Sequence record: OR992646
Direction: 5' to 3' (one strand)
DNA length: 33,119 nucleotides
Source of the DNA: Escherichia phage ET-SD-TH
A program made the translations under genes and the position numbers. The notes beneath the pieces were generated by a model. The model was not told the origin of the DNA. It was given only the letters and a program-made list of their open reading frames with translations, and searched no databases. The number at the start of each line of letters is the position of its first letter. Within the stretch, counting starts at the first letter, position 1. Shown here piece after piece: positions 240 through 27,017 of this stretch.

Positions 240-252
240 AACAATCATTGTT
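240..252. repeat. 13-bp palindrome AACAATCATTGTT (copy 1 of 3), overlapping the stop codon of the 236-aa gene and preceded by TTTTTT
   Basis: Exact sequence read at 240-252; reverse complement of the copies at 2465-2477 and 5581-5593. Confidence 0.45.
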
Positions 253-955
253 TACGATAACCTTTGCCAGAAATCCAAATTGCAATTTCTGTGGCAACAC
301 CAATGTCAAGACTGGTTTTTGTAGTGGCAGCAAAGTTAGCCAGTTCGTAAAGTATTTCATCACGCGCTTCACATTCATTTAGGTCGGCTTCTAACTGCTC
401 ATCGTTCAATATCGCAGTATCGCGAGGCACAACAATTCCTGCTGGTTGTACTTCGTGAGGATTAACAATGCGGTAAGAAATGATGTCACCGTCACTGCCA
501 GTATGTGACCATGCAAAATATTCTGCTCTGTCATTATTGATATGAAGCGGGCTAGGATTCCGGTATTTGACTTCAACAATTGCGTCACTATCCACAGGAC
601 ATTCACCGCCAGCCCATTCAATCCAGCCGTCAGCGTCGGCAGCAATTGCGGTTTTTCCTGCCCCTGTGTCAGCCGTGTAGTGTTCAGTTGAAACCTGGTA
701 CGGTCGCAGTTCTTTACTGGCTGCCAGCGCGGCTTCGTACTGGTCGCTGGTGATNNNNNNNNNNNNNNNNNNNNNNNNNNNNNNNNNNNNNNNNNNNNNN
801 NNNNNNNNNNNNNNNNNNNNNNNNNNNNNNNNNNNNNNNNNNNNNAGTTCACGGTCTGAATCTTGCGTAATAGCCTTCACTCCTTCCGGCCATCCGCCAC
901 GTTTCGGCAGTTCTTCAACCAGTATTTGCAGCAGGGTTTTATTTGATGTGTTCAT
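245..955 (-). CDS. hypothetical acidic protein (236 aa; 91 nt masked internally)
   Basis: Long minus-strand ORF immediately downstream of the tail D gene; protein-like composition; no motif I can recognise. Residues from 755-845 are unknown. Confidence 0.45.
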   Translation of the reverse strand: MNTSNKTLLQILVEELPKRGGWPEGVKAITQDSDREXXXXXXXXXXXXXXXXXXXXXXXXXXXXXXXITSDQYEAALAASKELRPYQVSTEHYTADTGAGKTAIAADADGWIEWAGGECPVDSDAIVEVKYRNPSPLHINNDRAEYFAWSHTGSDGDIISYRIVNPHEVQPAGIVVPRDTAILNDEQLEADLNECEARDEILYELANFAATTKTSLDIGVATEIAIWISGKGYRKQ

Positions 956-1049
956 GTGGGCATTACCTCGTTATTTATCCGGGCAGGTTATCCGCCCGTT
1001 CAAGGTAATGATATACGATGATGTAGAATGATTGCAACAATGTTTGTTG

Positions 1050-2204
1050 TTATTTTTCTTCGATGACATGGCCAGGGCCATCATCGCCTTCGTTAATGTC
1101 CTTTTCTTCGATCACGTGCCCTGGACCATCATCGTCAGGAGGGTCGCTTTCTTGCGGCTTCCTGCGCTCGATGATTTGCACCTTTGGTTCTTCTTCGCTG
1201 TTCGGCTTCGTTGCTTCCACGTCGCACGAATAACCGTTGTCATCCAGCCTGTGATCTGCGCGGGTAATCAGCCATTCGCCATCAATGCCATCACGGAACT
1301 CAACCAGCACCAGCTTGCATTCTGCGGCAATGGTAGGGTCACCGGGCAGCGTCACGGCAACAGTCACCTGGTTGCGCTGACGCTTCGACAGTTCGGCTTT
1401 GGCGGCGTCCAGCGCCATTGCCTGCGTTGGGTAGTATTTGCCAATCCGTTTGACCGGCTCCCCTTCGCCCACCTTCACTTCGTTGCGCGCTGCCTTCTTC
1501 GTCACCTGGTAGTAAGCCACCACCGTGCCTGCGTTTTCGCGCTTCTGGCTGGTTAGCCGGAATGCGGTGCAATCCTGCGCCGTCAGCGTTATGGTTGGCA
1601 GTTCTTCGCCGCTGGCCGTCTTACCTTCGCCGCGCTTCGTGACCGTGATTTTGCCGCCTGATGGTTTCACTACGCCGTCATATTTCTTGGCCAGTCGCAG
1701 CAACAGGTTCAGGTCAGATTCATCGGCCTGGTCAGTGTGGGGCAGGGTGATTTTGGCCATGCTTTCTGACACGGCTGATTCCATGCCGTGTTCTTCGGCA
1801 ATCTTCTTCACCATGTCGCCAAACTTCGTGCCTTTGGTCCAGCTACGTGATTTTTGCGTTTGCAGGTCGGTTTTGCCGCCCTTTGACTTGTCATAGGTGG
1901 CAGCTCTCGCCCTGATTGTCATGGTGCCTGGCCAGCCAGCCAGTTCCACTTCATCACAGATGAACAAGCCCATGCGCTGTGTCCAGTTATCATAACCCAG
2001 GAACAGTTCCAGTTCTGCGCCTGTTTCCGGCATCTGGATTGGGTTGGCCGGTTCATCATCGGCAAGGCTTATTTCCAGCGTGTCAGATTCCAGCCCTACG
2101 CCGTCAGACAGACTAAGGCTTATCAGGCGTTCATTGATTTTGGCGGTGATGTCATCGCCGTTGGCCAGCACGCGAAACGCTGGCGCAATCCCTGTTAATC
2201 CCAC
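1050..2204 (-). CDS. phage tail protein D (P2 gpD-like, late control D family)
   Basis: 384-aa ORF; N-terminus MGLTGIAPAFRVLANGDDITAKINERLISLSLSD matches the gpD family; sits after U and X as in P2-type tail modules; C-terminus carries a tandem DDGPGHVIEEK repeat. Confidence 0.85.
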   Translation of the reverse strand: MGLTGIAPAFRVLANGDDITAKINERLISLSLSDGVGLESDTLEISLADDEPANPIQMPETGAELELFLGYDNWTQRMGLFICDEVELAGWPGTMTIRARAATYDKSKGGKTDLQTQKSRSWTKGTKFGDMVKKIAEEHGMESAVSESMAKITLPHTDQADESDLNLLLRLAKKYDGVVKPSGGKITVTKRGEGKTASGEELPTITLTAQDCTAFRLTSQKRENAGTVVAYYQVTKKAARNEVKVGEGEPVKRIGKYYPTQAMALDAAKAELSKRQRNQVTVAVTLPGDPTIAAECKLVLVEFRDGIDGEWLITRADHRLDDNGYSCDVEATKPNSEEEPKVQIIERRKPQESDPPDDDGPGHVIEEKDINEGDDGPGHVIEEK

Positions 2205-2404
2205 AATTTCACCCCCTGCGTGGTCGCTGGCGTCGTGATTTCAGGCAGGTTGATGACCAGGCCAGCAGGCAGCACAGGTCCACGGTCTGCCAACCCTTTG
2301 TTGGCGTCCAGCAGTGCTTCCACGGTGCCAGCGTCCTGGTTTCCGTAGTATTTCCAGGCGATGTAATCCGCCGTGTCACCGTCTTTGGTAATGTAAGTTT
2401 GCAT
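2195..2404 (-). CDS. phage tail protein X (P2 gpX-like)
   Basis: 69-aa ORF MQTYITKDGDTADYIAWKYYGNQDAGTVEALLDANKGLADRGPVLPAG resembles P2 gpX; start overlaps the U stop, end overlaps the D start. Confidence 0.8.
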   Translation of the reverse strand: MQTYITKDGDTADYIAWKYYGNQDAGTVEALLDANKGLADRGPVLPAGLVINLPEITTPATTQGVKLWD

Positions 2405-2814
2405 CAGTTGAACCGCCGCAGTTGCAAATTGAATTCCTGTTTGCGCGGCGCACCGAACGCGGCAAACAATGATTGTTTTTCGTCAATGGCTTCAATCACC
2501 CAGCGGCCCCACAGCTTGCCCAGGCCGTCCACCAGCAACAGCGGCTGACCACGGCCAGCCATGCTGCGCATTTGCTCCACCTGCTGAAACCCGCCACGGT
2601 ATTCAGGGTAAATGATGCCAGCCAGGGTGATGGTTTCCTCTCCGATGCCCACGAATTGCGATGATGGTCGCTGGCCAAAGCGGTGCTGCGATGGCCACTT
2701 ATATTCGCTGTGGCGGTTCAGTTCCTGATATGCCGCAGTAAGGATGCAGAACTGGAAGCCGCCCAACATCATCATGATGTTGGTCTGCCCGGTTAAAATC
2801 GTGAAACTGGTCAT
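2404..2814 (-). CDS. phage tail protein U (P2 gpU-like)
   Basis: Contains MMMLGGFQF...SEYKWPSQHRFGQRPSSQFVG...LLLVDGLGKLWGRWVI...PRKQEFNLQLRRF, matching gpU; ATGA start/stop overlap with the tape measure gene (ATG 2814-2812, TGA 2813-2811) with GGAG upstream. An alternative start at the MMM run (2775) is possible. Confidence 0.8.
   Translation of the reverse strand: MTSFTILTGQTNIMMMLGGFQFCILTAAYQELNRHSEYKWPSQHRFGQRPSSQFVGIGEETITLAGIIYPEYRGGFQQVEQMRSMAGRGQPLLLVDGLGKLWGRWVIEAIDEKQSLFAAFGAPRKQEFNLQLRRFN
2465..2477. repeat. 13-bp palindrome AACAATGATTGTT (copy 2 of 3), inside the U coding region
   Basis: Exact sequence read at 2465-2477. Confidence 0.4.
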
Positions 2815-5150
2815 GGTGCCGTCACTCCGTCATTCATCATGCTGCGCTGCCGCACCTGGCGGCGGCGCTCCTGTTCGTCGGCAATACGTTTGGCCAGGTC
2901 TGTGGTGTTCTCACCAGGGCGCTGCACGATCTGCATCGTAGTTTGGCTGTTGTCCTGGTAGGTACTGCCTCCACGGTTAGCCAGTGCCGGTGCTGGCAAT
3001 GCGCTTGCTGGTGTCTGCGGTGTCGCCAGAGTGTTTCCTTCCGGCACGTCATCACCGCCGAACGGGTTTCTGAAAAAGTCTTTTGTTGACTCCCACGCGC
3101 TGCCAGCCATGTCAGAAACGCTGTTTTTGAAATCAATTGCTTTTTGCGTCAGTGCGCCAATGTTGTCAGAAACCCAAATGATCTTATCAATCAGGAACTG
3201 AATTGGCCCCAACACAAAATCAATGCCTGCGGCAAGCGCCTTGCCGAACTTCTGGCCAGCGTCACCGGCCTTTTTCAGTTCTTCGCTGCTGTAGCTCACC
3301 GGTTCTGCCAGTTTTGTGAACCAATCCCACACCTTACCAGCAACGTCAGCAACCCACTGGAACGCGGTTTTGACTGGTCCTAACTTATCCCACAGCGCCT
3401 GGAATTTCTCCGTTACTGGCTGCAACCCTTGCTGGATTCCCTGCAAAGTGCCGGTCATGAACGCTTTGACGCCAGCCCAATTGCGGTAAATCCACAGGCC
3501 GCCAAGCGCCAGTCCGGTAATCAGGGCACCAATGCCGGTGGAAATGAACGCCGCACCGATGGCGCGCACACCAGCGACAACGGCAGGGATTCCACGCGAT
3601 GCCATGCCCACTAGTCCGCCGTTGGCCACGGTAGCTGCGGCACCCACTGCACGCGAGGAAACCGCCGTCAGCGCCATCTGTGCGCGGGCACCAGCCAGGG
3701 CACCTACAACACGAAGCGCACCACCACGCAGGTACGTGAACGCGAAGCCAGCAGCAAACGTGGCAATGCGCATGGTAATCAGTGCGCCAGCCGTGGCTAC
3801 AATGGCTTTGGTGACAACCGGGTGCGCTTGCGCCAGTTCTGTAACCTTGCCAATCCACGGACTAATGGTTTTCAGGACGCTGTTGAATGCTGGAAGCAGC
3901 ACGCTGCCAATAGTGATACCAAGTGCGGTGATCTGGTTTCGGAATATTACCAGTTCGTTTGCCGTTGTTGCGGCCCGTGCCTGGTATTCTTTTTCCATAG
4001 AACCGGCATATTTCATTTTGTTCGCTACAGCGTCAAAATTCTTTTCCAGTTCCTTGATGTTCGTCAGCAATGGCGCAATTGAACCAACAACCTCTTTGCC
4101 AAAAAGCTGCGTCAGAACCGCTGACTGTTCGTGTTTCCGCAGTTTTGCAACCTGCTTGAGAATGACAAGCATGGTTTTTTTGGAGTCCCGTTGCATGGAT
4201 TTTGCAACTGCTGTTGAGGAATAGCCAAGCCGTGCGAATGCTTCTCGCTGCGATTTTGCTTTACCCGCCGTCAGTGACAGCATCAGGTTTTTGATACCAG
4301 TGGCGGCAATCTCGTTTTGCACACCCATGCCGCGCAGTGTCGCACCAAGTGCGGCAATTTCACCGGAAGCAGTACCGGCAACCTCGCCAAGTGGCCCGAT
4401 GCGCTGCACGATCTCCATGATGTCTTTGGCTGATGCGGCAGTGTTATTGCCCAGGTAGTTGATTTTGTCAGCCAGGGCGACAACCTGTTGCTGGTTCATC
4501 TTGAACGCAGAGCGCATCTCTGCCATCGCCTGGCCTGCCTGGTCGGCGGTGATGTCGAACGCCACGCCCATTTTGATGGCTGATTCCGCAAACGTCATCA
4601 GATCTTTGGCTGCAATGCCAGACTGACCACCAGCGGCAACGATCTTGCCAATGTCGTTGGCAGTCATCGGCAGAACTTTTGACATGTTGATAATGTCCTG
4701 CCCCATCTTTTTGAACCCGTCAGGCGTGTCGAAATCAACAACCTTTTTCACGTCAGCCATCGTTGATTCAAAATCAATCGCTGCTTTGACGGGTGCGGCA
4801 ATAGTGGCACCCAGGGCGATGGTGCCCATTATGCCGCTTTTGTATTCTTCGCGCTTATCAAGATTTCGCTGGCGTGCATCCTCCACACGTTTCAGGCGTT
4901 CGGTGGCGGTGCGAAGTTTGTCCACCGCAGCGACGTTTGCGGCATATTTGGCGCGCAGTGAATCAACGTTTTTGCCCTGGCGGCCAAACGTCTGTATGGC
5001 GTTGGTTAGCGTGCGTTGCTCGCGTTCCAGTTTGGCCATTGCCGAGCCAACCTGTTCCACAGATGATTTGACGGTGCCAAATGCGCCTTTAAGGCTGCTT
5101 GAAACTGCCCCGCCTATCGTGATCGTTGCATTGAGCTTCTTATTTGCCAT
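2811..5150 (-). CDS. phage tail tape measure protein (P2 gpT-like)
   Basis: 779-aa ORF rich in Ala/Gly with long helical segments and hydrophobic glycine-rich central stretches; positioned directly after the E/E' chaperone pair; ATG at 5150-5148. Confidence 0.85.
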   Translation of the reverse strand: MANKKLNATITIGGAVSSSLKGAFGTVKSSVEQVGSAMAKLEREQRTLTNAIQTFGRQGKNVDSLRAKYAANVAAVDKLRTATERLKRVEDARQRNLDKREEYKSGIMGTIALGATIAAPVKAAIDFESTMADVKKVVDFDTPDGFKKMGQDIINMSKVLPMTANDIGKIVAAGGQSGIAAKDLMTFAESAIKMGVAFDITADQAGQAMAEMRSAFKMNQQQVVALADKINYLGNNTAASAKDIMEIVQRIGPLGEVAGTASGEIAALGATLRGMGVQNEIAATGIKNLMLSLTAGKAKSQREAFARLGYSSTAVAKSMQRDSKKTMLVILKQVAKLRKHEQSAVLTQLFGKEVVGSIAPLLTNIKELEKNFDAVANKMKYAGSMEKEYQARAATTANELVIFRNQITALGITIGSVLLPAFNSVLKTISPWIGKVTELAQAHPVVTKAIVATAGALITMRIATFAAGFAFTYLRGGALRVVGALAGARAQMALTAVSSRAVGAAATVANGGLVGMASRGIPAVVAGVRAIGAAFISTGIGALITGLALGGLWIYRNWAGVKAFMTGTLQGIQQGLQPVTEKFQALWDKLGPVKTAFQWVADVAGKVWDWFTKLAEPVSYSSEELKKAGDAGQKFGKALAAGIDFVLGPIQFLIDKIIWVSDNIGALTQKAIDFKNSVSDMAGSAWESTKDFFRNPFGGDDVPEGNTLATPQTPASALPAPALANRGGSTYQDNSQTTMQIVQRPGENTTDLAKRIADEQERRRQVRQRSMMNDGVTAP

Positions 5151-5566: not shown

Positions 5567-5580
5567 TTCTTATCGCCTTA

Positions 5581-5593
5581 AACAATGATTGTT
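5581..5593. repeat. 13-bp palindrome AACAATGATTGTT (copy 3 of 3), 15-28 nt upstream of the E start
   Basis: Exact sequence read at 5581-5593. Confidence 0.45.
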
Positions 5594-5599
5594 GAAAAT

Positions 5600-7673: not shown

Positions 7674-10600
7674 AAAGGCGACAAATCAGTAACNNNNNNN
7701 NNNNNNNNNNNNNNNNNNNNNNNNNNNNNNNNNNNNNNNNNNNNNNNNNNNNNNNNNNNNNNNNNNNNNNNNNNNNNNNNNNNNNNNNNNNNNNNNNNNN
7801 NNNNNNNNNNNNNNNNNNNNNNNNNNNNNNNNNNNNNNNNNNNNNNNNNNNNNNNNNNNNNNNNNNNNNNNNNNNNNNNNNNNNNNNNNNNNNNNNNNNN
7901 NNNNNNNNNNNNNNNNNNNNNNNNNNNNNNNNNNNNNNNNNNNNNNNNNNNNNNNNNNNNNNNNNNNNNNNNNNNNNNNNNNNNNNNNNNNNNNNNNNNN
8001 NNNNNNNNNNNNNNNNNNNNNNNNNNNNNNNNNNNNNNNNNNNNNNNNNNNNNNNNNNNNNNNNNNNNNNNNNNNNNNNNNNNNNNNNNNNNNNNNNNNN
8101 NNNNNNNNNNNNNNNNNNNNNNNNNNNNNNNNNNNNNNNNNNNNNNNNNNNNNNNNNNNNNNNNNNNNNNNNNNNNNNNNNNNNNNNNNNNNNNNNNNNN
8201 NNNNNNNNNNNNNNNNNNNNNNNNNNNNNNNNNNNNNNNNNNNNNNNNNNNNNNNNNNNNNNNNNNNNNNNNNNNNNNNNNNNNNNNNNNNNNNNNNNNN
8301 NNNNNNNNNNNNNNNNNNNNNNNNNNNNNNNNNNNNNNNNNNNNNNNNNNNNNNNNNNNNNNNNNNNNNNNNNNNNNNNNNNNNNNNNNNNNNNNNNNNN
8401 NNNNNNNNNNNNNNNNNNNNNNNNNNNNNNNNNNNNNNNNNNNNNNNNNNNNNNNNNNNNNNNNNNNNNNNNNNNNNNNNNNNNNNNNNNNNNNNNNNNN
8501 NNNNNNNNNNNNNNNNNNNNNNNNNNNNNNNNNNNNNNNNNNNNNNNNNNNNNNNNNNNNNNNNNNNNNNNNNNNNNNNNNNNNNNNNNNNNNNNNNNNN
8601 NNNNNNNNNNNNNNNNNNNNNNNNNNNNNNNNNNNNNNNNNNNNNNNNNNNNNNNNNNNNNNNNNNNNNNNNNNNNNNNNNNNNNNNNNNNNNNNNNNNN
8701 NNNNNNNNNNNNNNNNNNNNNNNNNNNNNNNNNNNNNNNNNNNNNNNNNNNNNNNNNNNNNNNNNNNNNNNNNNNNNNNNNNNNNNNNNNNNNNNNNNNN
8801 NNNNNNNNNNNNNNNNNNNNNNNNNNNNNNNNNNNNNNNNNNNNNNNNNNNNNNNNNNNNNNNNNNNNNNNNNNNNNNNNNNNNNNNNNNNNNNNNNNNN
8901 NNNNNNNNNNNNNNNNNNNNNNNNNNNNNNNNNNNNNNNNNNNNNNNNNNNNNNNNNNNNNNNNNNNNNNNNNNNNNNNNNNNNNNNNNNNNNNNNNNNN
9001 NNNNNNNNNNNNNNNNNNNNNNNNNNNNNNNNNNNNNNNNNNNNNNNNNNNNNNNNNNNNNNNNNNNNNNNNNNNNNNNNNNNNNNNNNNNNNNNNNNNN
9101 NNNNNNNNNNNNNNNNNNNNNNNNNNNNNNNNNNNNNNNNNNNNNNNNNNNNNNNNNNNNNNNNNNNNNNNNNNNNNNNNNNNNNNNNNNNNNNNNNNNN
9201 NNNNNNNNNNNNNNNNNNNNNNNNNNNNNNNNNNNNNNNNNNNNNNNNNNNNNNNNNNNNNNNNNNNNNNNNNNNNNNNNNNNNNNNNNNNNNNNNNNNN
9301 NNNNNNNNNNNNNNNNNNNNNNNNNNNNNNNNNNNNNNNNNNNNNNNNNNNNNNNNNNNNNNNNNNNNNNNNNNNNNNNNNNNNNNNNNNNNNNNNNNNN
9401 NNNNNNNNNNNNNNNNNNNNNNNNNNNNNNNNNNNNNNNNNNNNNNNNNNNNNNNNNNNNNNNNNNNNNNNNNNNNNNNNNNNNNNNNNNNNNNNNNNNN
9501 NNNNNNNNNNNNNNNNNNNNNNNNNNNNNNNNNNNNNNNNNNNNNNNNNNNNNNNNNNNNNNNNNNNNNNNNNNNNNNNNNNNNNNNNNNNNNNNNNNNN
9601 NNNNNNNNNNNNNNNNNNNNNNNNNNNNNNNNNNNNNNNNNNNNNNNNNNNNNNNNNNNNNNNNNNNNNNNNNNNNNNNNNNNNNNNNNNNNNNNNNNNN
9701 NNNNNNNNNNNNNNNNNNNNNNNNNNNNNNNNNNNNNNNNNNNNNNNNNNNNNNNNNNNNNNNNNNNNNNNNNNNNNNNNNNNNNNNNNNNNNNNNNNNN
9801 NNNNNNNNNNNNNNNNNNNNNNNNNNNNNNNNNNNNNNNNNNNNNNNNNNNNNNNNNNNNNNNNNNNNNNNNNNNNNNNNNNNNNNNNNNNNNNNNNNNN
9901 NNNNNNNNNNNNNNNNNNNNNNNNNNNNNNNNNNNNNNNNNNNNNNNNNNNNNNNNNNNNNNNNNNNNNNNNNNNNNNNNNNNNNNNNNNNNNNNNNNNN
10001 NNNNNNNNNNNNNNNNNNNNNNNNNNNNNNNNNNNNNNNNNNNNNNNNNNNNNNNNNNNNNNNNNNNNNNNNNNNNNNNNNNNNNNNNNNNNNNNNNNNN
10101 NNNNNNNNNNNNNNNNNNNNNNNNNNNNNNNNNNNNNNNNNNNNNNNNNNNNNNNNNNNNNNNNNNNNNNNNNNNNNNNNNNNNNNNNNNNNNNNNNNNN
10201 NNNNNNNNNNNNNNNNNNNNNNNNNNNNNNNNNNNNNNNNNNNNNNNNNNNNNNNNNNNNNNNNNNNNNNNNNNNNNNNNNNNNNNNNNNNNNNNNNNNN
10301 NNNNNNNNNNNNNNNNNNNNNNNNNNNNNNNNNNNNNNNNNNNNNNNNNNNNNNNNNNNNNNNNNNNNNNNNNNNNNNNNNNNNNNNNNNNNNNNNNNNN
10401 NNNNNNNNNNNNNNNNNNNNNNNNNNNNNNNNNNNNNNNNNNNNNNNNNNNNNNNNNNNNNNNNNNNNNNNNNNNNNNNNNNNNNNNNNNNNNNNNNNNN
10501 NNNNNNNNNNNNNNNNNNNNNNNNNNNNNNNNNNNNNNNNNNNNNNNNNNNNNNNNNNNNNNNNNNNNNNNNNNNNNNNNNNNNNNNNNNNNNNNNNNNN

Positions 10601-12750
10601 NNNNNNNNNNNNNNNNNNNNNNNNNNNNNNNNNNNNNNNNNNNNNNNNNNNNNNNNNNNNNNNNNNNNNNNNNNNNNNNNNNNNNNNNNNNNNNNNNNNN
10701 NNNNNNNNNNNNNNNNNNNNNNNNNNNNNNNNNNNNNNNNNNNNNNNNNNNNNNNNNNNNNNNNNNNNNNNNNNNNNNNNNNNNNNNNNNNNNNNNNNNN
10801 NNNNNNNNNNNNNNNNNNNNNNNNNNNNNNNNNNNNNNNNNNNNNNNNNNNNNNNNNNNNNNNNNNNNNNNNNNNNNNNNNNNNNNNNNNNNNNNNNNNN
10901 NNNNNNNNNNNNNNNNNNNNNNNNNNNNNNNNNNNNNNNNNNNNNNNNNNNNNNNNNNNNNNNNNNNNNNNNNNNNNNNNNNNNNNNNNNNNNNNNNNNN
11001 NNNNNNNNNNNNNNNNNNNNNNNNNNNNNNNNNNNNNNNNNNNNNNNNNNNNNNNNNNNNNNNNNNNNNNNNNNNNNNNNNNNNNNNNNNNNNNNNNNNN
11101 NNNNNNNNNNNNNNNNNNNNNNNNNNNNNNNNNNNNNNNNNNNNNNNNNNNNNNNNNNNNNNNNNNNNNNNNNNNNNNNNNNNNNNNNNNNNNNNNNNNN
11201 NNNNNNNNNNNNNNNNNNNNNNNNNNNNNNNNNNNNNNNNNNNNNNNNNNNNNNNNNNNNNNNNNNNNNNNNNNNNNNNNNNNNNNNNNNNNNNNNNNNN
11301 NNNNNNNNNNNNNNNNNNNNNNNNNNNNNNNNNNNNNNNNNNNNNNNNNNNNNNNNNNNNNNNNNNNNNNNNNNNNNNNNNNNNNNNNNNNNNNNNNNNN
11401 NNNNNNNNNNNNNNNNNNNNNNNNNNNNNNNNNNNNNNNNNNNNNNNNNNNNNNNNNNNNNNNNNNNNNNNNNNNNNNNNNNNNNNNNNNNNNNNNNNNN
11501 NNNNNNNNNNNNNNNNNNNNNNNNNNNNNNNNNNNNNNNNNNNNNNNNNNNNNNNNNNNNNNNNNNNNNNNNNNNNNNNNNNNNNNNNNNNNNNNNNNNN
11601 NNNNNNNNNNNNNNNNNNNNNNNNNNNNNNNNNNNNNNNNNNNNNNNNNNNNNNNNNNNNNNNNNNNNNNNNNNNNNNNNNNNNNNNNNNNNNNNNNNNN
11701 NNNNNNNNNNNNNNNNNNNNNNNNNNNNNNNNNNNNNNNNNNNNNNNNNNNNNNNNNNNNNNNNNNNNNNNNNNNNNNNNNNNNNNNNNNNNNNNNNNNN
11801 NNNNNNNNNNNNNNNNNNNNNNNNNNNNNNNNNNNNNNNNNNNNNNNNNNNNNNNNNNNNNNNNNNNNNNNNNNNNNNNNNNNNNNNNNNNNNNNNNNNN
11901 NNNNNNNNNNNNNNNNNNNNNNNNNNNNNNNNNNNNNNNNNNNNNNNNNNNNNNNNNNNNNNNNNNNNNNNNNNNNNNNNNNNNNNNNNNNNNNNNNNNN
12001 NNNNNNNNNNNNNNNNNNNNNNNNNNNNNNNNNNNNNNNNNNNNNNNNNNNNNNNNNNNNNNNNNNNNNNNNNNNNNNNNNNNNNNNNNNNNNNNNNNNN
12101 NNNNNNNNNNNNNNNNNNNNNNNNNNNNNNNNNNNNNNNNNNNNNNNNNNNNNNNNNNNNNNNNNNNNNNNNNNNNNNNNNNNNNNNNNNNNNNNNNNNN
12201 NNNNNNNNNNNNNNNNNNNNNNNNNNNNNNNNNNNNNNNNNNNNNNNNNNNNNNNNNNNNNNNNNNNNNNNNNNNNNNNNNNNNNNNNNNNNNNNNNNNN
12301 NNNNNNNNNNNNNNNNNNNNNNNNNNNNNNNNNNNNNNNNNNNNNNNNNNNNNNNNNNNNNNNNNNNNNNNNNNNNNNNNNNNNNNNNNNNNNNNNNNNN
12401 NNNNNNNNNNNNNNNNNNNNNNNNNNNNNNNNNNNNNNNNNNNNNNNNNNNNNNNNNNNNNNNNNNNNNNNNNNNNNNNNNNNNNNNNNNNNNNNNNNNN
12501 NNNNNNNNNNNNNNNNNNNNNNNNNNNNNNNNNNNNNNNNNNNNNNNNNNNNNNNNNNNNNNNNNNNNNNNNNNNNNNNNNNNNNNNNNNNNNNNNNNNN
12601 NNNNNNNNNNNNNNNNNNNNNNNNNNNNNNNNNNNNNNNNNNNNNNNNNNNNNNNNNNNNNNNNNNNNNNNNNNNNNNNNNNNNNNNNNNNNNNNNNNNN
12701 NNNNNNNNNNNNNNNNNNNNNNNNNNNNNNNNNNNNNNNNNNNNNNNNNN

Positions 12751-12947: not shown

Positions 12948-15900
12948 NNNNNNNNNNNNNNNNNNNNNNNNNNNNNNNNNNNNNNNNNNNNNNNNNNNNN
13001 NNNNNNNNNNNNNNNNNNNNNNNNNNNNNNNNNNNNNNNNNNNNNNNNNNNNNNNNNNNNNNNNNNNNNNNNNNNNNNNNNNNNNNNNNNNNNNNNNNNN
13101 NNNNNNNNNNNNNNNNNNNNNNNNNNNNNNNNNNNNNNNNNNNNNNNNNNNNNNNNNNNNNNNNNNNNNNNNNNNNNNNNNNNNNNNNNNNNNNNNNNNN
13201 NNNNNNNNNNNNNNNNNNNNNNNNNNNNNNNNNNNNNNNNNNNNNNNNNNNNNNNNNNNNNNNNNNNNNNNNNNNNNNNNNNNNNNNNNNNNNNNNNNNN
13301 NNNNNNNNNNNNNNNNNNNNNNNNNNNNNNNNNNNNNNNNNNNNNNNNNNNNNNNNNNNNNNNNNNNNNNNNNNNNNNNNNNNNNNNNNNNNNNNNNNNN
13401 NNNNNNNNNNNNNNNNNNNNNNNNNNNNNNNNNNNNNNNNNNNNNNNNNNNNNNNNNNNNNNNNNNNNNNNNNNNNNNNNNNNNNNNNNNNNNNNNNNNN
13501 NNNNNNNNNNNNNNNNNNNNNNNNNNNNNNNNNNNNNNNNNNNNNNNNNNNNNNNNNNNNNNNNNNNNNNNNNNNNNNNNNNNNNNNNNNNNNNNNNNNN
13601 NNNNNNNNNNNNNNNNNNNNNNNNNNNNNNNNNNNNNNNNNNNNNNNNNNNNNNNNNNNNNNNNNNNNNNNNNNNNNNNNNNNNNNNNNNNNNNNNNNNN
13701 NNNNNNNNNNNNNNNNNNNNNNNNNNNNNNNNNNNNNNNNNNNNNNNNNNNNNNNNNNNNNNNNNNNNNNNNNNNNNNNNNNNNNNNNNNNNNNNNNNNN
13801 NNNNNNNNNNNNNNNNNNNNNNNNNNNNNNNNNNNNNNNNNNNNNNNNNNNNNNNNNNNNNNNNNNNNNNNNNNNNNNNNNNNNNNNNNNNNNNNNNNNN
13901 NNNNNNNNNNNNNNNNNNNNNNNNNNNNNNNNNNNNNNNNNNNNNNNNNNNNNNNNNNNNNNNNNNNNNNNNNNNNNNNNNNNNNNNNNNNNNNNNNNNN
14001 NNNNNNNNNNNNNNNNNNNNNNNNNNNNNNNNNNNNNNNNNNNNNNNNNNNNNNNNNNNNNNNNNNNNNNNNNNNNNNNNNNNNNNNNNNNNNNNNNNNN
14101 NNNNNNNNNNNNNNNNNNNNNNNNNNNNNNNNNNNNNNNNNNNNNNNNNNNNNNNNNNNNNNNNNNNNNNNNNNNNNNNNNNNNNNNNNNNNNNNNNNNN
14201 NNNNNNNNNNNNNNNNNNNNNNNNNNNNNNNNNNNNNNNNNNNNNNNNNNNNNNNNNNNNNNNNNNNNNNNNNNNNNNNNNNNNNNNNNNNNNNNNNNNN
14301 NNNNNNNNNNNNNNNNNNNNNNNNNNNNNNNNNNNNNNNNNNNNNNNNNNNNNNNNNNNNNNNNNNNNNNNNNNNNNNNNNNNNNNNNNNNNNNNNNNNN
14401 NNNNNNNNNNNNNNNNNNNNNNNNNNNNNNNNNNNNNNNNNNNNNNNNNNNNNNNNNNNNNNNNNNNNNNNNNNNNNNNNNNNNNNNNNNNNNNNNNNNN
14501 NNNNNNNNNNNNNNNNNNNNNNNNNNNNNNNNNNNNNNNNNNNNNNNNNNNNNNNNNNNNNNNNNNNNNNNNNNNNNNNNNNNNNNNNNNNNNNNNNNNN
14601 NNNNNNNNNNNNNNNNNNNNNNNNNNNNNNNNNNNNNNNNNNNNNNNNNNNNNNNNNNNNNNNNNNNNNNNNNNNNNNNNNNNNNNNNNNNNNNNNNNNN
14701 NNNNNNNNNNNNNNNNNNNNNNNNNNNNNNNNNNNNNNNNNNNNNNNNNNNNNNNNNNNNNNNNNNNNNNNNNNNNNNNNNNNNNNNNNNNNNNNNNNNN
14801 NNNNNNNNNNNNNNNNNNNNNNNNNNNNNNNNNNNNNNNNNNNNNNNNNNNNNNNNNNNNNNNNNNNNNNNNNNNNNNNNNNNNNNNNNNNNNNNNNNNN
14901 NNNNNNNNNNNNNNNNNNNNNNNNNNNNNNNNNNNNNNNNNNNNNNNNNNNNNNNNNNNNNNNNNNNNNNNNNNNNNNNNNNNNNNNNNNNNNNNNNNNN
15001 NNNNNNNNNNNNNNNNNNNNNNNNNNNNNNNNNNNNNNNNNNNNNNNNNNNNNNNNNNNNNNNNNNNNNNNNNNNNNNNNNNNNNNNNNNNNNNNNNNNN
15101 NNNNNNNNNNNNNNNNNNNNNNNNNNNNNNNNNNNNNNNNNNNNNNNNNNNNNNNNNNNNNNNNNNNNNNNNNNNNNNNNNNNNNNNNNNNNNNNNNNNN
15201 NNNNNNNNNNNNNNNNNNNNNNNNNNNNNNNNNNNNNNNNNNNNNNNNNNNNNNNNNNNNNNNNNNNNNNNNNNNNNNNNNNNNNNNNNNNNNNNNNNNN
15301 NNNNNNNNNNNNNNNNNNNNNNNNNNNNNNNNNNNNNNNNNNNNNNNNNNNNNNNNNNNNNNNNNNNNNNNNNNNNNNNNNNNNNNNNNNNNNNNNNNNN
15401 NNNNNNNNNNNNNNNNNNNNNNNNNNNNNNNNNNNNNNNNNNNNNNNNNNNNNNNNNNNNNNNNNNNNNNNNNNNNNNNNNNNNNNNNNNNNNNNNNNNN
15501 NNNNNNNNNNNNNNNNNNNNNNNNNNNNNNNNNNNNNNNNNNNNNNNNNNNNNNNNNNNNNNNNNNNNNNNNNNNNNNNNNNNNNNNNNNNNNNNNNNNN
15601 NNNNNNNNNNNNNNNNNNNNNNNNNNNNNNNNNNNNNNNNNNNNNNNNNNNNNNNNNNNNNNNNNNNNNNNNNNNNNNNNNNNNNNNNNNNNNNNNNNNN
15701 NNNNNNNNNNNNNNNNNNNNNNNNNNNNNNNNNNNNNNNNNNNNNNNNNNNNNNNNNNNNNNNNNNNNNNNNNNNNNNNNNNNNNNNNNNNNNNNNNNNN
15801 NNNNNNNNNNNNNNNNNNNNNNNNNNNNNNNNNNNNNNNNNNNNNNNNNNNNNNNNNNNNNNNNNNNNNNNNNNNNNNNNNNNNNNNNNNNNNNNNNNNN

Positions 15901-18793
15901 NNNNNNNNNNNNNNNNNNNNNNNNNNNNNNNNNNNNNNNNNNNNNNNNNNNNNNNNNNNNNNNNNNNNNNNNNNNNNNNNNNNNNNNNNNNNNNNNNNNN
16001 NNNNNNNNNNNNNNNNNNNNNNNNNNNNNNNNNNNNNNNNNNNNNNNNNNNNNNNNNNNNNNNNNNNNNNNNNNNNNNNNNNNNNNNNNNNNNNNNNNNN
16101 NNNNNNNNNNNNNNNNNNNNNNNNNNNNNNNNNNNNNNNNNNNNNNNNNNNNNNNNNNNNNNNNNNNNNNNNNNNNNNNNNNNNNNNNNNNNNNNNNNNN
16201 NNNNNNNNNNNNNNNNNNNNNNNNNNNNNNNNNNNNNNNNNNNNNNNNNNNNNNNNNNNNNNNNNNNNNNNNNNNNNNNNNNNNNNNNNNNNNNNNNNNN
16301 NNNNNNNNNNNNNNNNNNNNNNNNNNNNNNNNNNNNNNNNNNNNNNNNNNNNNNNNNNNNNNNNNNNNNNNNNNNNNNNNNNNNNNNNNNNNNNNNNNNN
16401 NNNNNNNNNNNNNNNNNNNNNNNNNNNNNNNNNNNNNNNNNNNNNNNNNNNNNNNNNNNNNNNNNNNNNNNNNNNNNNNNNNNNNNNNNNNNNNNNNNNN
16501 NNNNNNNNNNNNNNNNNNNNNNNNNNNNNNNNNNNNNNNNNNNNNNNNNNNNNNNNNNNNNNNNNNNNNNNNNNNNNNNNNNNNNNNNNNNNNNNNNNNN
16601 NNNNNNNNNNNNNNNNNNNNNNNNNNNNNNNNNNNNNNNNNNNNNNNNNNNNNNNNNNNNNNNNNNNNNNNNNNNNNNNNNNNNNNNNNNNNNNNNNNNN
16701 NNNNNNNNNNNNNNNNNNNNNNNNNNNNNNNNNNNNNNNNNNNNNNNNNNNNNNNNNNNNNNNNNNNNNNNNNNNNNNNNNNNNNNNNNNNNNNNNNNNN
16801 NNNNNNNNNNNNNNNNNNNNNNNNNNNNNNNNNNNNNNNNNNNNNNNNNNNNNNNNNNNNNNNNNNNNNNNNNNNNNNNNNNNNNNNNNNNNNNNNNNNN
16901 NNNNNNNNNNNNNNNNNNNNNNNNNNNNNNNNNNNNNNNNNNNNNNNNNNNNNNNNNNNNNNNNNNNNNNNNNNNNNNNNNNNNNNNNNNNNNNNNNNNN
17001 NNNNNNNNNNNNNNNNNNNNNNNNNNNNNNNNNNNNNNNNNNNNNNNNNNNNNNNNNNNNNNNNNNNNNNNNNNNNNNNNNNNNNNNNNNNNNNNNNNNN
17101 NNNNNNNNNNNNNNNNNNNNNNNNNNNNNNNNNNNNNNNNNNNNNNNNNNNNNNNNNNNNNNNNNNNNNNNNNNNNNNNNNNNNNNNNNNNNNNNNNNNN
17201 NNNNNNNNNNNNNNNNNNNNNNNNNNNNNNNNNNNNNNNNNNNNNNNNNNNNNNNNNNNNNNNNNNNNNNNNNNNNNNNNNNNNNNNNNNNNNNNNNNNN
17301 NNNNNNNNNNNNNNNNNNNNNNNNNNNNNNNNNNNNNNNNNNNNNNNNNNNNNNNNNNNNNNNNNNNNNNNNNNNNNNNNNNNNNNNNNNNNNNNNNNNN
17401 NNNNNNNNNNNNNNNNNNNNNNNNNNNNNNNNNNNNNNNNNNNNNNNNNNNNNNNNNNNNNNNNNNNNNNNNNNNNNNNNNNNNNNNNNNNNNNNNNNNN
17501 NNNNNNNNNNNNNNNNNNNNNNNNNNNNNNNNNNNNNNNNNNNNNNNNNNNNNNNNNNNNNNNNNNNNNNNNNNNNNNNNNNNNNNNNNNNNNNNNNNNN
17601 NNNNNNNNNNNNNNNNNNNNNNNNNNNNNNNNNNNNNNNNNNNNNNNNNNNNNNNNNNNNNNNNNNNNNNNNNNNNNNNNNNNNNNNNNNNNNNNNNNNN
17701 NNNNNNNNNNNNNNNNNNNNNNNNNNNNNNNNNNNNNNNNNNNNNNNNNNNNNNNNNNNNNNNNNNNNNNNNNNNNNNNNNNNNNNNNNNNNNNNNNNNN
17801 NNNNNNNNNNNNNNNNNNNNNNNNNNNNNNNNNNNNNNNNNNNNNNNNNNNNNNNNNNNNNNNNNNNNNNNNNNNNNNNNNNNNNNNNNNNNNNNNNNNN
17901 NNNNNNNNNNNNNNNNNNNNNNNNNNNNNNNNNNNNNNNNNNNNNNNNNNNNNNNNNNNNNNNNNNNNNNNNNNNNNNNNNNNNNNNNNNNNNNNNNNNN
18001 NNNNNNNNNNNNNNNNNNNNNNNNNNNNNNNNNNNNNNNNNNNNNNNNNNNNNNNNNNNNNNNNNNNNNNNNNNNNNNNNNNNNNNNNNNNNNNNNNNNN
18101 NNNNNNNNNNNNNNNNNNNNNNNNNNNNNNNNNNNNNNNNNNNNNNNNNNNNNNNNNNNNNNNNNNNNNNNNNNNNNNNNNNNNNNNNNNNNNNNNNNNN
18201 NNNNNNNNNNNNNNNNNNNNNNNNNNNNNNNNNNNNNNNNNNNNNNNNNNNNNNNNNNNNNNNNNNNNNNNNNNNNNNNNNNNNNNNNNNNNNNNNNNNN
18301 NNNNNNNNNNNNNNNNNNNNNNNNNNNNNNNNNNNNNNNNNNNNNNNNNNNNNNNNNNNNNNNNNNNNNNNNNNNNNNNNNNNNNNNNNNNNNNNNNNNN
18401 NNNNNNNNNNNNNNNNNNNNNNNNNNNNNNNNNNNNNNNNNNNNNNNNNNNNNNNNNNNNNNNNNNNNNNNNNNNNNNNNNNNNNNNNNNNNNNNNNNNN
18501 NNNNNNNNNNNNNNNNNNNNNNNNNNNNNNNNNNNNNNNNNNNNNNNNNNNNNNNNNNNNNNNNNNNNNNNNNNNNNNNNNNNNNNNNNNNNNNNNNNNN
18601 NNNNNNNNNNNNNNNNNNNNNNNNNNNNNNNNNNNNNNNNNNNNNNNNNNNNNNNNNNNNNNNNNNNNNNNNNNNNNNNNNNNNNNNNNNNNNNNNNNNN
18701 NNNNNNNNNNNNNNNNNNNNNNNNNNNNNNNNNNNNNNNNNNNNNNNNNNNNNNNNNNNNNNNNNNNNNNNNNNNNNNNNNNNNNNNNNNNNN

Positions 18794-20871: not shown

Positions 20872-22920
20872 TCACCAGCGGCTAACCCATCCACCGCCAC
20901 GGCGTTTTGCTGCCCTGGCGGAACGTTTAATGGTCTTAGTCTCTTTGACTTGCTGTTTTTCTTCTTCTTGGGGTTTGTCATTGACCGCTGATGGTGGCTC
21001 CACCGGCTTCATGACAGGTTTTACGTTCGGCAGTCGCTTGCGTCGTTCCGGTGGCGCGTTGTCGTTCGCTACGCCAAACTTTTCAGCCAGACGGCGGAAT
21101 GACGGCTGCATGATTTTAAGCGCGGCCAGCGCATAGTTGCGGCAGTCCAGTGCTTCGTTACGCGCCCGGTCGGGTTTCTTCCATTCGCGGATTGGCTGGC
21201 CCTTCACGTAACGCATGGTTAGCTTTTCAGCGGTGATTTGCTTGAACCATTCTTCATCACGGTCAGCAGGGAAGTGGCAATAACCCGGCCCAGGTGCCGT
21301 CTTGTTTAAACGCCTTGCGGTTATCAGCTTGGCTTCATCGGTTCCCACCAGGAACAAATCCACTTTGCGGGCATCCTTCCCGGATTGCTTGCGCTTCGGC
21401 TTCTCCACGACAGGGCGGCCCCATCCGCCAACGCCTTTGATGGCAAACAGGCGGCGGCCTGTGCGCCCCCTGGCGTATTCGTAGGATGCCTGCGTGTAAC
21501 CGCTGGTGCCCCCTGTATCGAGGCAGGCGGCCATGATCGGCATAATGGCCCCGGTTTCGTGCTGGTAGGTTTCCGCCAGAAGGTCATCCAGTGCATCCCA
21601 GGGGTCAGGCGTCAGTGGGTCACCCCACAGGACGTGGTAACCCAATGACCAGGATTCTTCACCCACACCCCAGGCGACCACCTCACATTCCAGGCGGTCA
21701 ACCTGCATGTCTATGCCTGCGGTGATATACAGCCCACCAGCAGGAACCGGCGCTGCGTATTCCTCGCGGCGGGCCATCAGTGAATCCGGGTCAACCTTGT
21801 CGCCTTCTTCTTCCCAGGTGCGCGCCAGGCTGACGTTGGTGAAGGTTTGCAGGTCGTCGGTTTTCAGCTTGTCCAGGTAGTCACGCACGATGGCCGGAAC
21901 TTTGCGGAACGTGCTGTAAAGTTCGTTCAGATGGTAGCTGGCGTGCCCTTCAAACGGCCTGGATGCCTTCCATCCTGCGCCCTTTCCTTCGGCCTGGCGG
22001 ATAGCCGCTATCCGTTCGCCGTCATTCCACTGCGCGCCGCACGATGGGCAATACAGGTGCGCGGTTTCCGGCTTCTGTTCTTCGATGGCCGCCAGCGTTT
22101 CCGCGTCAGTTTCCCGTTGGCCATCCCATTTGACGTTTTCCCATTCAAGCGTAACGTGATCGTCACAGTGCGGGCAGCAAACAAAGAAGTGCCGCTGGTC
22201 GCCCATTTCATACGCTTTTTCGATGTACGATTCCCCTTTAAGGGTAGGTGTGCTAATTTCCAGCAAAAAACGCTGGTCACCGAAGGTGGCAGAGCGCTGC
22301 CACAGCAGGCCAACAGGGTGGCCTTCGCTGGTTCGTTCATATCCGTCTACCTCGTCACAGACAATCAGCGGCGCTGAACGCCCGCGCATGGTCTTTGGCG
22401 AACCGGACCAGGCGAACATCAGGAACCCGCCAGGGTATGATTTCATTTTCTGGTTGTTCACCCCGTCGCGGCCACGCGGCTTGGCAATGGCGTTGTTTAC
22501 CGGCGCGCATTCTTCCGCCAGCGGGTTGAATTTCGTTTCCAGCCAGGTGCGCAAGTCATCCTGGCTTGGCTGCATCATCATCTGGCTGCGCGGTTCCGCT
22601 GCTACGCTGTACGCCTGCACGCACAGTGCCAGCATGGTTTTGCCCACCTGCGCGCCCCACATCAGGGTCACGCGGTAACAATCAGGGTCAACCAGCATGT
22701 CCATTGGTTCGCGCTGGTATGGCGCGTTATCCAGGCGCAGCGGCCCTGGCACGGCGTTGCCAGACGGAATGCGGATGTTTGCCTGCGCCCACTCTGACGG
22801 CTTCATGTCTGGCGGCGGCAACAATTGTTGTTGTGCGCGCCTGATGGCCTGGTCGATGCCTTCAATGTTGGCAAACGGGTTATTCTTCGCTGTCACCGTC
22901 GCCCCCTTCGTCATAGCCAT
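20872..22920 (-). CDS. terminase large subunit (lambda gpA-like)
   Basis: 682-aa ORF; Walker A-like GAQVGKT; overall similarity to lambda gpA (...FFVCCPHCDDHVTLEWENVKWDGQ...); paired with an Nu1-like small subunit upstream. Confidence 0.9.
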   Translation of the reverse strand: MAMTKGATVTAKNNPFANIEGIDQAIRRAQQQLLPPPDMKPSEWAQANIRIPSGNAVPGPLRLDNAPYQREPMDMLVDPDCYRVTLMWGAQVGKTMLALCVQAYSVAAEPRSQMMMQPSQDDLRTWLETKFNPLAEECAPVNNAIAKPRGRDGVNNQKMKSYPGGFLMFAWSGSPKTMRGRSAPLIVCDEVDGYERTSEGHPVGLLWQRSATFGDQRFLLEISTPTLKGESYIEKAYEMGDQRHFFVCCPHCDDHVTLEWENVKWDGQRETDAETLAAIEEQKPETAHLYCPSCGAQWNDGERIAAIRQAEGKGAGWKASRPFEGHASYHLNELYSTFRKVPAIVRDYLDKLKTDDLQTFTNVSLARTWEEEGDKVDPDSLMARREEYAAPVPAGGLYITAGIDMQVDRLECEVVAWGVGEESWSLGYHVLWGDPLTPDPWDALDDLLAETYQHETGAIMPIMAACLDTGGTSGYTQASYEYARGRTGRRLFAIKGVGGWGRPVVEKPKRKQSGKDARKVDLFLVGTDEAKLITARRLNKTAPGPGYCHFPADRDEEWFKQITAEKLTMRYVKGQPIREWKKPDRARNEALDCRNYALAALKIMQPSFRRLAEKFGVANDNAPPERRKRLPNVKPVMKPVEPPSAVNDKPQEEEKQQVKETKTIKRSARAAKRRGGGWVSRW

Positions 22921-23404: not shown

Positions 23405-24064
23405 TTAATGTCGCCTTATCTAATGCTAAAATCAATTTTGATTATCCACGCACAACGCGAATNNNNNNNNNNNNNNNNNNNNNNNNNNNNNNNNNNNNNN
23501 NNNNNNNNNNNNNNNNNNNNNNNNNNNNNNNNNNNNNNNNNNNNNNNNNNNNNNNNNNNNNNNNNNNNNNNNNNNNNNNNNNNNNNNNNNNNNNNNNNNN
23601 NNNNNNNNNNNNNNNNNNNNNNNNNNNNNNNNNNNNNNNNNNNNNNNNNNNNNNNNNNNNNNNNNNNNNNNNNNNNNNNNNNNNNNNNNNNNNNNNNNNN
23701 NNNNNNNNNNNNNNNNNNNNNNNNNNNNNNNNNNNNNNNNNNNNNNNNNNNNNNNNNNNNNNNNNNNNNNNNNNNNNNNNNNNNNNNNNNNNNNNNNNNN
23801 NNNNNNNNNNNNNNNNNNNNNNNNNNNNNNNNNNNNNNNNNNNNNNNNNNNNNNNNNNNNNNNNNNNNNNNNNNNNNNNNNNNNNNNNNNNNNNNNNNNN
23901 NNNNNNNNNNNNNNNNNNNNNNNNNNNNNNNNNNNNNNNNNNNNNNNNNNNNNNNNNNNNNNNNNNNNNNNNNNNNNNNNNNNNNNNNNNNNNNNNNNNN
24001 NNNNNNNNNNNNNNNNNNNNNNNNNNNNNNNNNNNNNNNNNNNNNNNNNNNNNNNNNNNNNNNN

Positions 24065-26273: not shown

Positions 26274-27017
26274 NNNNNNNNNNNNNNNNNNNNNNNNNNN
26301 NNNNNNNNNNNNNNNNNNNNNNNNNNNNNNNNNNNNNNNNNNNNNNNNNNNNNNNNNNNNNNNNNNNNNNNNNNNNNNNNNNNNNNNNNNNNNNNNNNNN
26401 NNNNNNNNNNNNNNNNNNNNNNNNNNNNNNNNNNNNNNNNNNNNNNNNNNNNNNNNNNNNNNNNNNNNNNNNNNNNNNNNNNNNNNNNNNNNNNNNNNNN
26501 NNNNNNNNNNNNNNNNNNNNNNNNNNNNNNNNNNNNNNNNNNNNNNNNNNNNNNNNNNNNNNNNNNNNNNNNNNNNNNNNNNNNNNNNNNNNNNNNNNNN
26601 NNNNNNNNNNNNNNNNNNNNNNNNNNNNNNNNNNNNNNNNNNNNNNNNNNNNNNNNNNNNNNNNNNNNNNNNNNNNNNNNNNNNNNNNNNNNNNNNNNNN
26701 NNNNNNNNNNNNNNNNNNNNNNNNNNNNNNNNNNNNNNNNNNNNNNNNNNNNNNNNNNNNNNNNNNNNNNNNNNNNNNNNNNNNNNNNNNNNNNNNNNNN
26801 NNNNNNNNNNNNNNNNNNNNNNNNNNNNNNNNNNNNNNNNNNNNNNNNNNNNNNNNNNNNNNNNNNNNNNNNNNNNNNNNNNNNNNNNNNNNNNNNNNNN
26901 NNNNNNNNNNNNNNNNNNNNNNNNNNNNNNNNNNNNNNNNNNNNNNNNNNNNNNNNNNNNNNNNNNNNNNNNNNNNNNNNNNNNNNNNNNNNNNNNNNNN
27001 NNNNNNNNNNNNNNNNN

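Follow-up and report, generated by a model that had tools for sequence, protein, structure and literature searches.

The baseplate hub gene of Escherichia phage ET-SD-TH ends in a stretch that encodes the same 11 residues, DDGPGHVIEEK, twice over, in two DNA copies that are not identical. This raises the question of whether the repeat is the product of a recent slip at the end of a gene, or whether selection has acted on the peptide itself, as a preliminary description of the locus had proposed. It also raises the question of what such a peptide might do at the end of a tail protein. We addressed both in a stretch of 33,119 nucleotides from sequence record OR992646 (hereafter the window), of which about 13 kb is masked as N. 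The gene that carries the repeat and the tail genes upstream of it are as follows.

1050..2204, minus strand: baseplate hub gene, homologue of P2 gpD and R2 pyocin PA0628, taken from the list of open reading frames; 384 aa, GTG start, stop codon at 1050-1052
2195..2404, minus strand: gpX-like LysM baseplate protein (BW4 'glue'), directly upstream of the hub; PF05489 at 70.2 bits and a LysM match
2404..2814, minus strand: gpU-like tube initiator or baseplate centrepiece; PF06995, E = 2e-38
2811..5150, minus strand: tape measure protein, 779 aa, with the basic C-terminus ...EQERRRQVRQRS...; open reading frame and annotated orthologues

The preliminary description called the product tail protein D, a baseplate hub protein, and this name is right, given the Pfam, PDB and Foldseek matches and the gene order. 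The protein matches Pfam PF05954 (Phage_GPD) over residues 115-323 with 47.4 bits (cut-off, 30.1 bits) and phrog_52, 'tail protein', with E = 4e-119, and its sole sequence match in the PDB is the R2 pyocin hub PA0628 (6u5h_C, E = 1.7e-41, residues 7-330). An AlphaFold (AF2) model of the hub, made with 80 homologues as input, had a pTM of 0.71. The best Foldseek match of this model was the same pyocin hub (6u5h_A, E = 2.8e-23, probability 1.00), the probability was also 1.00 for 3cdd, 1wru, 9ki1 and 1k28, and further matches comprised eCIS, VgrG, MuSo2, Mu gp44, P1 and T4 gp27 hubs. The gpX-like gene overlaps the hub start by 10 nt, and the order of tape measure protein, gpU, gpX and gpD, all on the minus strand, gives the hub the context of a contractile-tail module arranged as in R-pyocins. 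For the role of the gpX-like LysM protein in pyocin and Milano baseplates, and for the nomenclature of the gpU-like protein, we follow published work (PMC10811340). The gene at 1050..2204 thus encodes an ordinary baseplate hub of the gpD/gp27 family.

The window region is 94-95% identical at the DNA level to Escherichia phages ECO1230-10, ECOO78, ep3, HeidiAbel (Bas97) and Alux-21 and to Salmonella phage PT1, all of which belong to the genus Jilinvirus (Iiscvirinae) or are close relatives of it. These identities place ET-SD-TH in Jilinvirus. ECO1230-10 has a hub protein 99.2% identical to the one in the window, and complete Escherichia coli genomes contained no near match to the window region.

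The hub reading frame ends in ...SDPPDDDGPGHVIEEKDINEGDDGPGHVIEEK, or, over a longer stretch up to the stop, in ...ERRKPQESDPPDDDGPGHVIEEKDINEGDDGPGHVIEEK. Its last 27 residues are DDGPGHVIEEK-DINEG-DDGPGHVIEEK, so the duplication that had been described at the gpD end is present, with the following layout.

1101..1133, minus strand: motif copy 1 (internal), DDGPGHVIEEK, residues 358-368
1086..1100, minus strand: linker DINEG, residues 369-373
1053..1085, minus strand: motif copy 2 (C-terminal), DDGPGHVIEEK, residues 374-384

The repeat has a period of 48 nt (16 aa), and with a five-residue linker between them the copies are not strictly head to tail. A repeat finder run on the DNA placed them at 1054-1086 and 1102-1134, with 85% identity and a spacing of 48. 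The preliminary description had spoken of a tandem repeat at 1054-1088 and 1102-1136; the repeat itself stands, while those positions lie 1-3 nt off the codon register and the copies are separated by the linker. It had also counted five synonymous third-position differences, all of which are there, and had overlooked a sixth. Between copy 1 and copy 2, the window reads GGT/GGC, CCA/CCT, GGG/GGC, CAC/CAT, GTG/GTC and, as the sixth, AAG/AAA.

All six of these differences fall in third codon positions and are synonymous, leaving the peptide unchanged. Only 20 of the 99 single substitutions possible in the motif segment are synonymous, and when we simulated six random substitutions, the probability that all were synonymous ranged from 2.5e-5 (kappa 1) to 1.1e-4 (kappa 4). 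An antisense open reading frame at 1032-1556 on the plus strand was considered as a coding alternative and rejected, since the two copies give different translations in that frame. We also searched the sequence at the hub stop for a frameshift or read-through signal and found no slippery heptamer.

A repeat of this kind could in principle be an error of assembly. The two-copy form occurs, however, in two isolates (ECO1230-10 and ECOO78) and in five independent metagenome contigs, each with silent variants of its own, and an assembly artefact is thereby excluded. The exact two-copy peptide was thus already in GenBank, in ECO1230-10 and ECOO78.

We compared the hub end with those of relatives. 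The sequenced Jilinvirus hubs (ECO1230-10, ECOO78, ep3, HeidiAbel/Bas97, Alux-21, PT1, Arya and KA2-1) are orthologues with 78-99% protein identity, and all of them carry DDGPGHVI at the C-terminus. Six of these eight have a single copy: ep3, Bas97, Alux-21 and PT1 end in ...DDGPGHVIEEK*, and the more distant Arya and KA2-1 (78% identity) end in ...DDGPGHVITE*. The other two, ECO1230-10 and ECOO78, have a two-copy peptide identical to that of the window, from which they differ within the repeat by synonymous changes only. Of 120 homologues taken from databases, all with 73% identity or more carried the motif, and all with 72% or less lacked it. Such motif-less hubs, from Serratia phage MQ-4, Pseudomonas phage Persinger, Ralstonia phage phiRSP and others, end about 10 residues past the conserved ...CDVEAEKPN in a short, usually acidic tail.

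Within the motif-bearing group, 21 distinct tails all have an unaltered DDGPGHVI as their first or only copy. The 8 to 10 residues that precede it vary in the same tails (RKKPQESDPP, KKKPKEGDQP, HKRSTSSSWNP and others), so that the motif forms a conserved island between fast-evolving flanks, the spacer on one side and the linker on the other. Compared across these proteins, DDGPGHVI is conserved at the protein level throughout the genus.

The motif also seems to be confined to these hubs. A 24-nt degenerate-codon pattern searched against IMG/VR returned four contigs, all of them Jilinvirus hubs. Among the matches listed for a 21-nt pattern in metagenome and genome collections, we found chance ones in GC-rich DNA, and those listed that lay near a stop codon had unrelated contexts only, for example a reading frame ending in ...DGPGHVIDRYNA. 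A phmmer search with residues 331-384 against 1.84 billion protein representatives gave three weak matches, to unrelated repetitive proteins, and the motif did not recur either elsewhere in the window or within the first 22 kb of ECO1230-10, which contain its structural module. The titles and abstracts of the papers that we found on these phages make no mention of the hub tail. The DDGPGHVI tail is a genus-specific C-terminal decoration that these papers do not appear to treat.

The DNA directly past the hub stop is a separate matter.

1008..1049, minus strand: conserved intergenic element right after the hub stop, upstream of the next gene and outside the repeat

This element, which is conserved separately from the repeat that it abuts, contains the palindrome CAACAAACATTGTTG (1035-1049), which overlaps a sigma70-like -35 sequence, TTGCAA (1037->1032); a -10 sequence, TATCAT, follows at 1013->1008. 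An origin of the hub extension by read-through was rejected, because the hub stop of the motif-less MQ-4 directly abuts the same promoter-like sequence. The extension is thus an insertion and not a translated former spacer.

To reconstruct the history of the duplication, we collected DNA for 18 hub genes, eight of which have two copies (the window, ECO1230-10, ECOO78 and five metagenome contigs). When the hub bodies were placed in a neighbour-joining tree, the eight grouped as a single clade, with an internal divergence of 4-6%, whose sister group comprises the one-copy phages of E. coli and Salmonella (ep3, PT1, Alux-21 and Bas97). All eight genes have GTG...AAG in copy 1 and GTC...AAA in copy 2, the latter being the single-copy state of most one-copy relatives in the E. 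coli group (more distant ones have GTA, and one has AAG). The remaining third positions vary between phages, in copy 1 as well as in copy 2, and the number of differences between copies ranges from three (P0133) to six (the window) of 33 nt. Among 27 proteins, the copy number is only ever one or two, with two fixed in one clade and one in its sister. Since the two-copy genes are monophyletic and have the fixed differences GTG/GTC and AAG/AAA in common, the simplest account of these sequences is a single duplication, and not a recent one, in the common ancestor of the two-copy clade. The six differences in the window would then be two or three fixed ancestral ones (GTG/GTC, AAG/AAA and perhaps ATA/ATC) with later lineage-specific drift. 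A slippage-prone contingency repeat was rejected on the grounds that the units differ by 3-6 of 33 nt, that copy number is fixed by clade and that Tandem Repeats Finder gives the copy pair no score.

Since the duplication, copy 1 has accumulated at least six synonymous changes and no non-synonymous ones, and its peptide is invariant in the DNA of all eight two-copy genes. Copy 2 has undergone at least seven synonymous changes and has two altered codons (His to Gly and Glu to Gly), which occur in the P0001/P0126 lineage only, where it has degenerated to GPGGVIGEK; it is intact in six of the eight genes. In P0003, copy 2 reads HVIEGK (Glu to Gly). The adjoining five-codon linker behaved quite differently over the same period, with four non-synonymous changes and no synonymous ones (DINEG, DITEG, DIAEG, DVDEG), and the contrast between motif and linker in synonymous and non-synonymous changes is significant (Fisher p = 0.004). 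The earlier proposal, that selection has acted on the peptide and that the repeat is no recent slip, is therefore borne out by the invariance of the motif in 21 tails, by the age of the two-copy clade and by the contrast with the linker, and these comparisons support selection acting at the peptide level.

Whether this selection extends to both copies is a different question. It could be argued that only one copy is functional and that the duplication was neutral, arising where the structural module ends, at the 3' end of its last gene, with the internal copy taking over and the young, harmless terminal copy slowly decaying. One copy does suffice in most relatives, the altered residues noted above all lie in copy 2, and the module stops at the hub 3' end, beyond which the DNA is variable: temperate relatives have a tRNA, attP and an integrase there, and Jilinvirus has a hypervariable gene. 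A freely decaying copy 2 would, however, be expected to resemble the linker, and instead most of the two-copy genes have kept it intact through its synonymous changes. We consider wholly neutral decay possible but on balance unlikely. The terminal copy is nonetheless, to judge from the P0001/P0126 sequences, dispensable or relaxed in at least one lineage, and it does not follow that both copies are needed. Given the loss of His and Glu there, the second copy may simply be tolerated.

We next consider where the repeat sits in the protein.

1053..1214, minus strand: C-terminal tail, residues 331-384, past the part that can be aligned to solved hubs (the PDB alignment stops at residue 330)

The preliminary description had spoken of an acidic C-terminal extension, and the composition agrees: residues 331-384 contain 17 Asp/Glu and 7 Lys/Arg, for a net charge of -10. 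In the AlphaFold model, the body is confident up to a short strand at residues 342-346, pLDDT falls to 30-47 for residues 354-384 (nt 1053-1145), and there is no contact between the tail and the hub body. Both motif copies thus lie in a tail that is predicted to be disordered.

The nearest known hubs lack this arrangement. R2 pyocin PA0628 (6u5h) and P2 gpD have the same fold and belong to the same family as the window hub, which is 30% identical to P2 gpD, yet PA0628 (329 aa) aligns only up to residue 330 of the window hub, and P2 gpD has a short acidic end, ...SDVEYETEDDE, about 16 residues past the aligned body. Unlike the window hub, neither has an extension beyond a short tail, DDGPGHVI or a repeat; together with the motif-less relatives, they end about 10-16 residues past the last conserved strand. 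The Mu hub gp44 (1wru, 9ki1) likewise has the same hub fold, at about 13% identity, and no comparable motif. In type VI secretion systems, C-terminal extensions of VgrG spikes recruit effectors and thus provide a docking appendage on a gp27-like hub module. In VgrG-type proteins, the hub module runs straight into the spike, being fused to a gp5-like spike, and the appendage follows the spike and not the hub. VgrG structures are among the fold matches of the window hub, and a cargo candidate from the neighbouring gene looks unlikely here.

[quoted passage not shown] From these contacts and from the continuity of hub and spike in VgrG, the tail of the window hub should emerge at the junction of hub, spike and tape measure. 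The tape measure of ECO1230-10, an orthologue of that in the window, has a net charge of +25 and a basic C-terminus. No other tail protein there is strongly basic, and the tape measure is thus a candidate for electrostatic pairing with the acidic end of the hub. We also looked for a partner by co-varying lengths, but the spike and baseplate proteins are near-identical in length between Jilinvirus and the motif-less MQ-4, and nothing pointed to a partner. Tape-measure length was rejected as a correlate of the motif: it does differ from that of MQ-4, yet the motif-less Persinger has the long form.

We lean, by a modest degree of belief, towards the reading that the hub carries a disordered acidic tail with a selected short motif, duplicated once, which acts as a docking motif near the hub-spike-tape-measure junction. 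The evidence supports the descriptive part of this reading well (a disordered tail, a selected motif and one old duplication). Docking and the identity of the partner are what we infer by analogy, and docking seems the most likely role in light of the contacts of the hub C-terminus in Mu and the hub-spike continuity of VgrG. The protein has a gp27/gpD-type body and then a strongly acidic C-terminal tail of about 50 residues, predicted to be disordered. At its end, the tail carries DDGPGHVI as a short linear motif, to which EEK or TE is appended. The last 16 codons were duplicated once in the ancestor of a sub-clade (the window, ECO1230-10, ECOO78 and several metagenomic relatives), and a hub trimer would thus show six motifs instead of three. 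As a docking peptide, DDGPGHVI may form a tight Asp-Gly-Pro-Gly turn and then a short His-Val-Ile strand, which would clamp a neighbouring baseplate component (the spike, the C-terminus of the tape measure or an inner wedge protein) during assembly or before firing, with the acidic spacer as a flexible tether. The duplication would add valency or redundancy, the latter in the sense of a spare: the internal copy never varies, and the terminal copy can decay. Conservation tells us that the peptide matters, but not what it does, and the motif may instead serve in chaperoning of assembly, metal binding or contact with the host envelope, as alternatives outside a role in the virion.

A more specific form of the docking reading would make the tail a dedicated latch that holds the spike and the tape-measure plug until firing, or a device for recruiting a periplasm-bound protein in the manner of VgrG effector loading, with the duplication tuning the number of sites from three to six per virion. 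We regard so particular a role as improbable.

Alternatively, the motif could be a metal-binding site, in which three (or six) tails, arranged about the three-fold axis, would contribute Asp-Asp and His to hold a divalent cation, comparable to the Fe or Ca in the spike tips of P2, Mu and Milano. Two Asp and one His do belong to the conserved residues, within a Gly-Pro-Gly turn, and the hub trimer sits on the axis where spike proteins bind Fe via His motifs (PMC10811340, PMC11915804). The sequence departs from the EF-hand or DxDxDG pattern (D-x-[DN]-x-[DNS]-G-x-[ILV]-x-x-x-E), however, as position 5 is Pro and position 12 is Lys or absent; moreover, some copies have Gly, Ile, Val or Glu in place of the first Asp, the His has been lost from copy 2 of one lineage, and the motif region is predicted to be disordered. 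Metal binding thus strikes us as very improbable.

It is also conceivable that a nucleic-acid element, and not the peptide, is what has been conserved. The motif DNA is quasi-palindromic, and the two copies could fold, as RNA or DNA, into a long hairpin at the 3' terminus of the tail operon that serves as an mRNA stabiliser, an attenuator or a protein-binding site. A transcript of 990-1150 does fold stably, at -49.1 kcal/mol (z = -3.36 against shuffles), with a 23-pair helix between the copies (arms 1109-1134 and 1061-1086), and across the eight two-copy genes 89.7% of cells pair. Covariation in those eight genes is nevertheless not above the control, as 445 of 500 shuffles scored as high, and third-position changes break the pairs 39-87, 42-84 and 51-76 in five to six of the eight sequences. 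The pairing depends on codon positions 1 and 2, which are set by the peptide; the one-copy phages vary where single-copy pairing would occur; and there was no Rfam match at E <= 1 and no terminator-like site. The helix looks like a by-product of the codons, and we give the idea of a conserved nucleic-acid element very little credence.

Least probable of all is that the tail recruits the product of the neighbouring gene (245-955) as cargo or as an accessory subunit, as VgrG tails recruit effectors: this gene does lie between the hub and parB in every motif-bearing genome examined and is missing from the motif-less MQ-4, Persinger, PPpW-3 and FoX5, but that co-occurrence amounts to one phylogenetic event, the gene has a promoter-like site of its own, its product shares just 53% identity between ECO1230-10 and ECOO78, against an unchanging motif, and is truncated to 159 aa in ep3, and homologues occur in Klebsiella and Salmonella siphoviruses without a gpD-type hub.

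The repeat at the end of the hub is a real and neatly selected feature of modest importance, with nothing in it that would surprise a specialist. If the motif does not dock a partner, it would serve as a small, classic example of purifying selection acting on a short peptide once it has been duplicated, which helps annotation and leaves the view of these tails unchanged. If docking is its role, the motif would give a small entry point, specific to this genus, for studying how a minimal baseplate of the P2/pyocin type keeps hub, spike and tape measure together and lets them go, and Bas97 and ECO1230-10, as culturable phages, would offer a natural comparison of one copy with two.

Among baseplate hub genes with two copies of the peptide motif DDGPGHVIEEK, to which the window's own belongs, we found more silent differences per codon in the motif copies (window 1053-1133; 0.21) than in the remainder of the hub gene (1050-2204; 0.13), a contrast with a pairwise Fisher p of approximately 0.02-0.03 among pairs that are not independent of one another. 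This higher silent rate probably reflects the four-fold degenerate glycine, proline and valine codons of the motif, and selection against DNA identity between the two copies is an alternative candidate explanation. The stretch encoding DDGPGHVI is itself a quasi-palindrome, and the two motif copies are therefore able to pair with each other in RNA. On the minus-strand transcript, the arms at 1061-1086 and 1109-1134 can form an imperfect helix of 23 pairs (z = -3.36), for which we found no support from covariation across the eight two-copy relatives.

We also examined how the hub is annotated in the records of related phages. In those of Bas97 (HeidiAbel) and PT1, relatives with a single motif copy, the hub coding sequence (1002 nt) is about 35 codons too short; the full reading frame in both begins with GTG, matching the window, and in the Bas97 locus compared here the hub lies at 1669-2775. 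Older records name the hub a "putative transcriptional regulator," presumably a legacy of the designation "late control gene D." Masking with N affects 13,057 of the window's 33,119 bases. It takes in the greater part of the region for baseplate, fibre and sheath, and for this reason the spike and wedge genes were taken from ECO1230-10 instead.

Recurrent palindrome and masked stretches (window coordinates)
1035-1049, 5580-5594, 22819-22833, 29451-29465: CAACAA-N3-TTGTTG, at most one mismatch
755-845, 7694-12750, 12948-18793, 23463-24064, 26274-27017, 27233-27949: masked (N)

The palindrome CAACAA-N3-TTGTTG occurs at four sites in the window at this threshold, where shuffled sequences predict 0.14, and two of the four are intergenic. 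The one at 1035-1049 lies directly 3' of the hub stop codon, overlapping the -35 element of a sigma70-like promoter, and is kept together with its flanks as far as the more distant motif-bearing phages Arya and KA2-1, and in part in MQ-4, a relative without the motif. The other falls between a terminator-like hairpin, downstream of the tube gene, and the start of the gene that follows. This palindrome may act as an operator or a promoter element of the phage.

Features flanking the hub 3' end
Window 245-955, minus strand: gene after the hub (phrog_26870/9174), masked at 755-845
Persinger 3541-3619, antisense: annotated tRNA-Arg gene beginning at the hub stop codon, integrase next
PPpW-3 ~3540-3620: unannotated sequence much like the Persinger tRNA-Arg, same place, integrase next

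The gene that follows the hub matched no Pfam family and is hypervariable, its protein being 53% identical between ECO1230-10 and ECOO78 versus approximately 94-96% for the flanks, and it ranges from 159 to 308 aa among relatives. Homologues are present in Klebsiella and Salmonella siphoviruses, and the gene is missing from MQ-4, Persinger, PPpW-3 and FoX5. Its position, where the structural module ends, has the look of a hot spot for accessory genes. In the temperate relatives Persinger and PPpW-3, given the tRNA-Arg-type sequence and the integrase found there, the hub 3' end abuts a presumed attP/integration module, a neighbour that may account for the evolutionary plasticity of this end of the hub gene.
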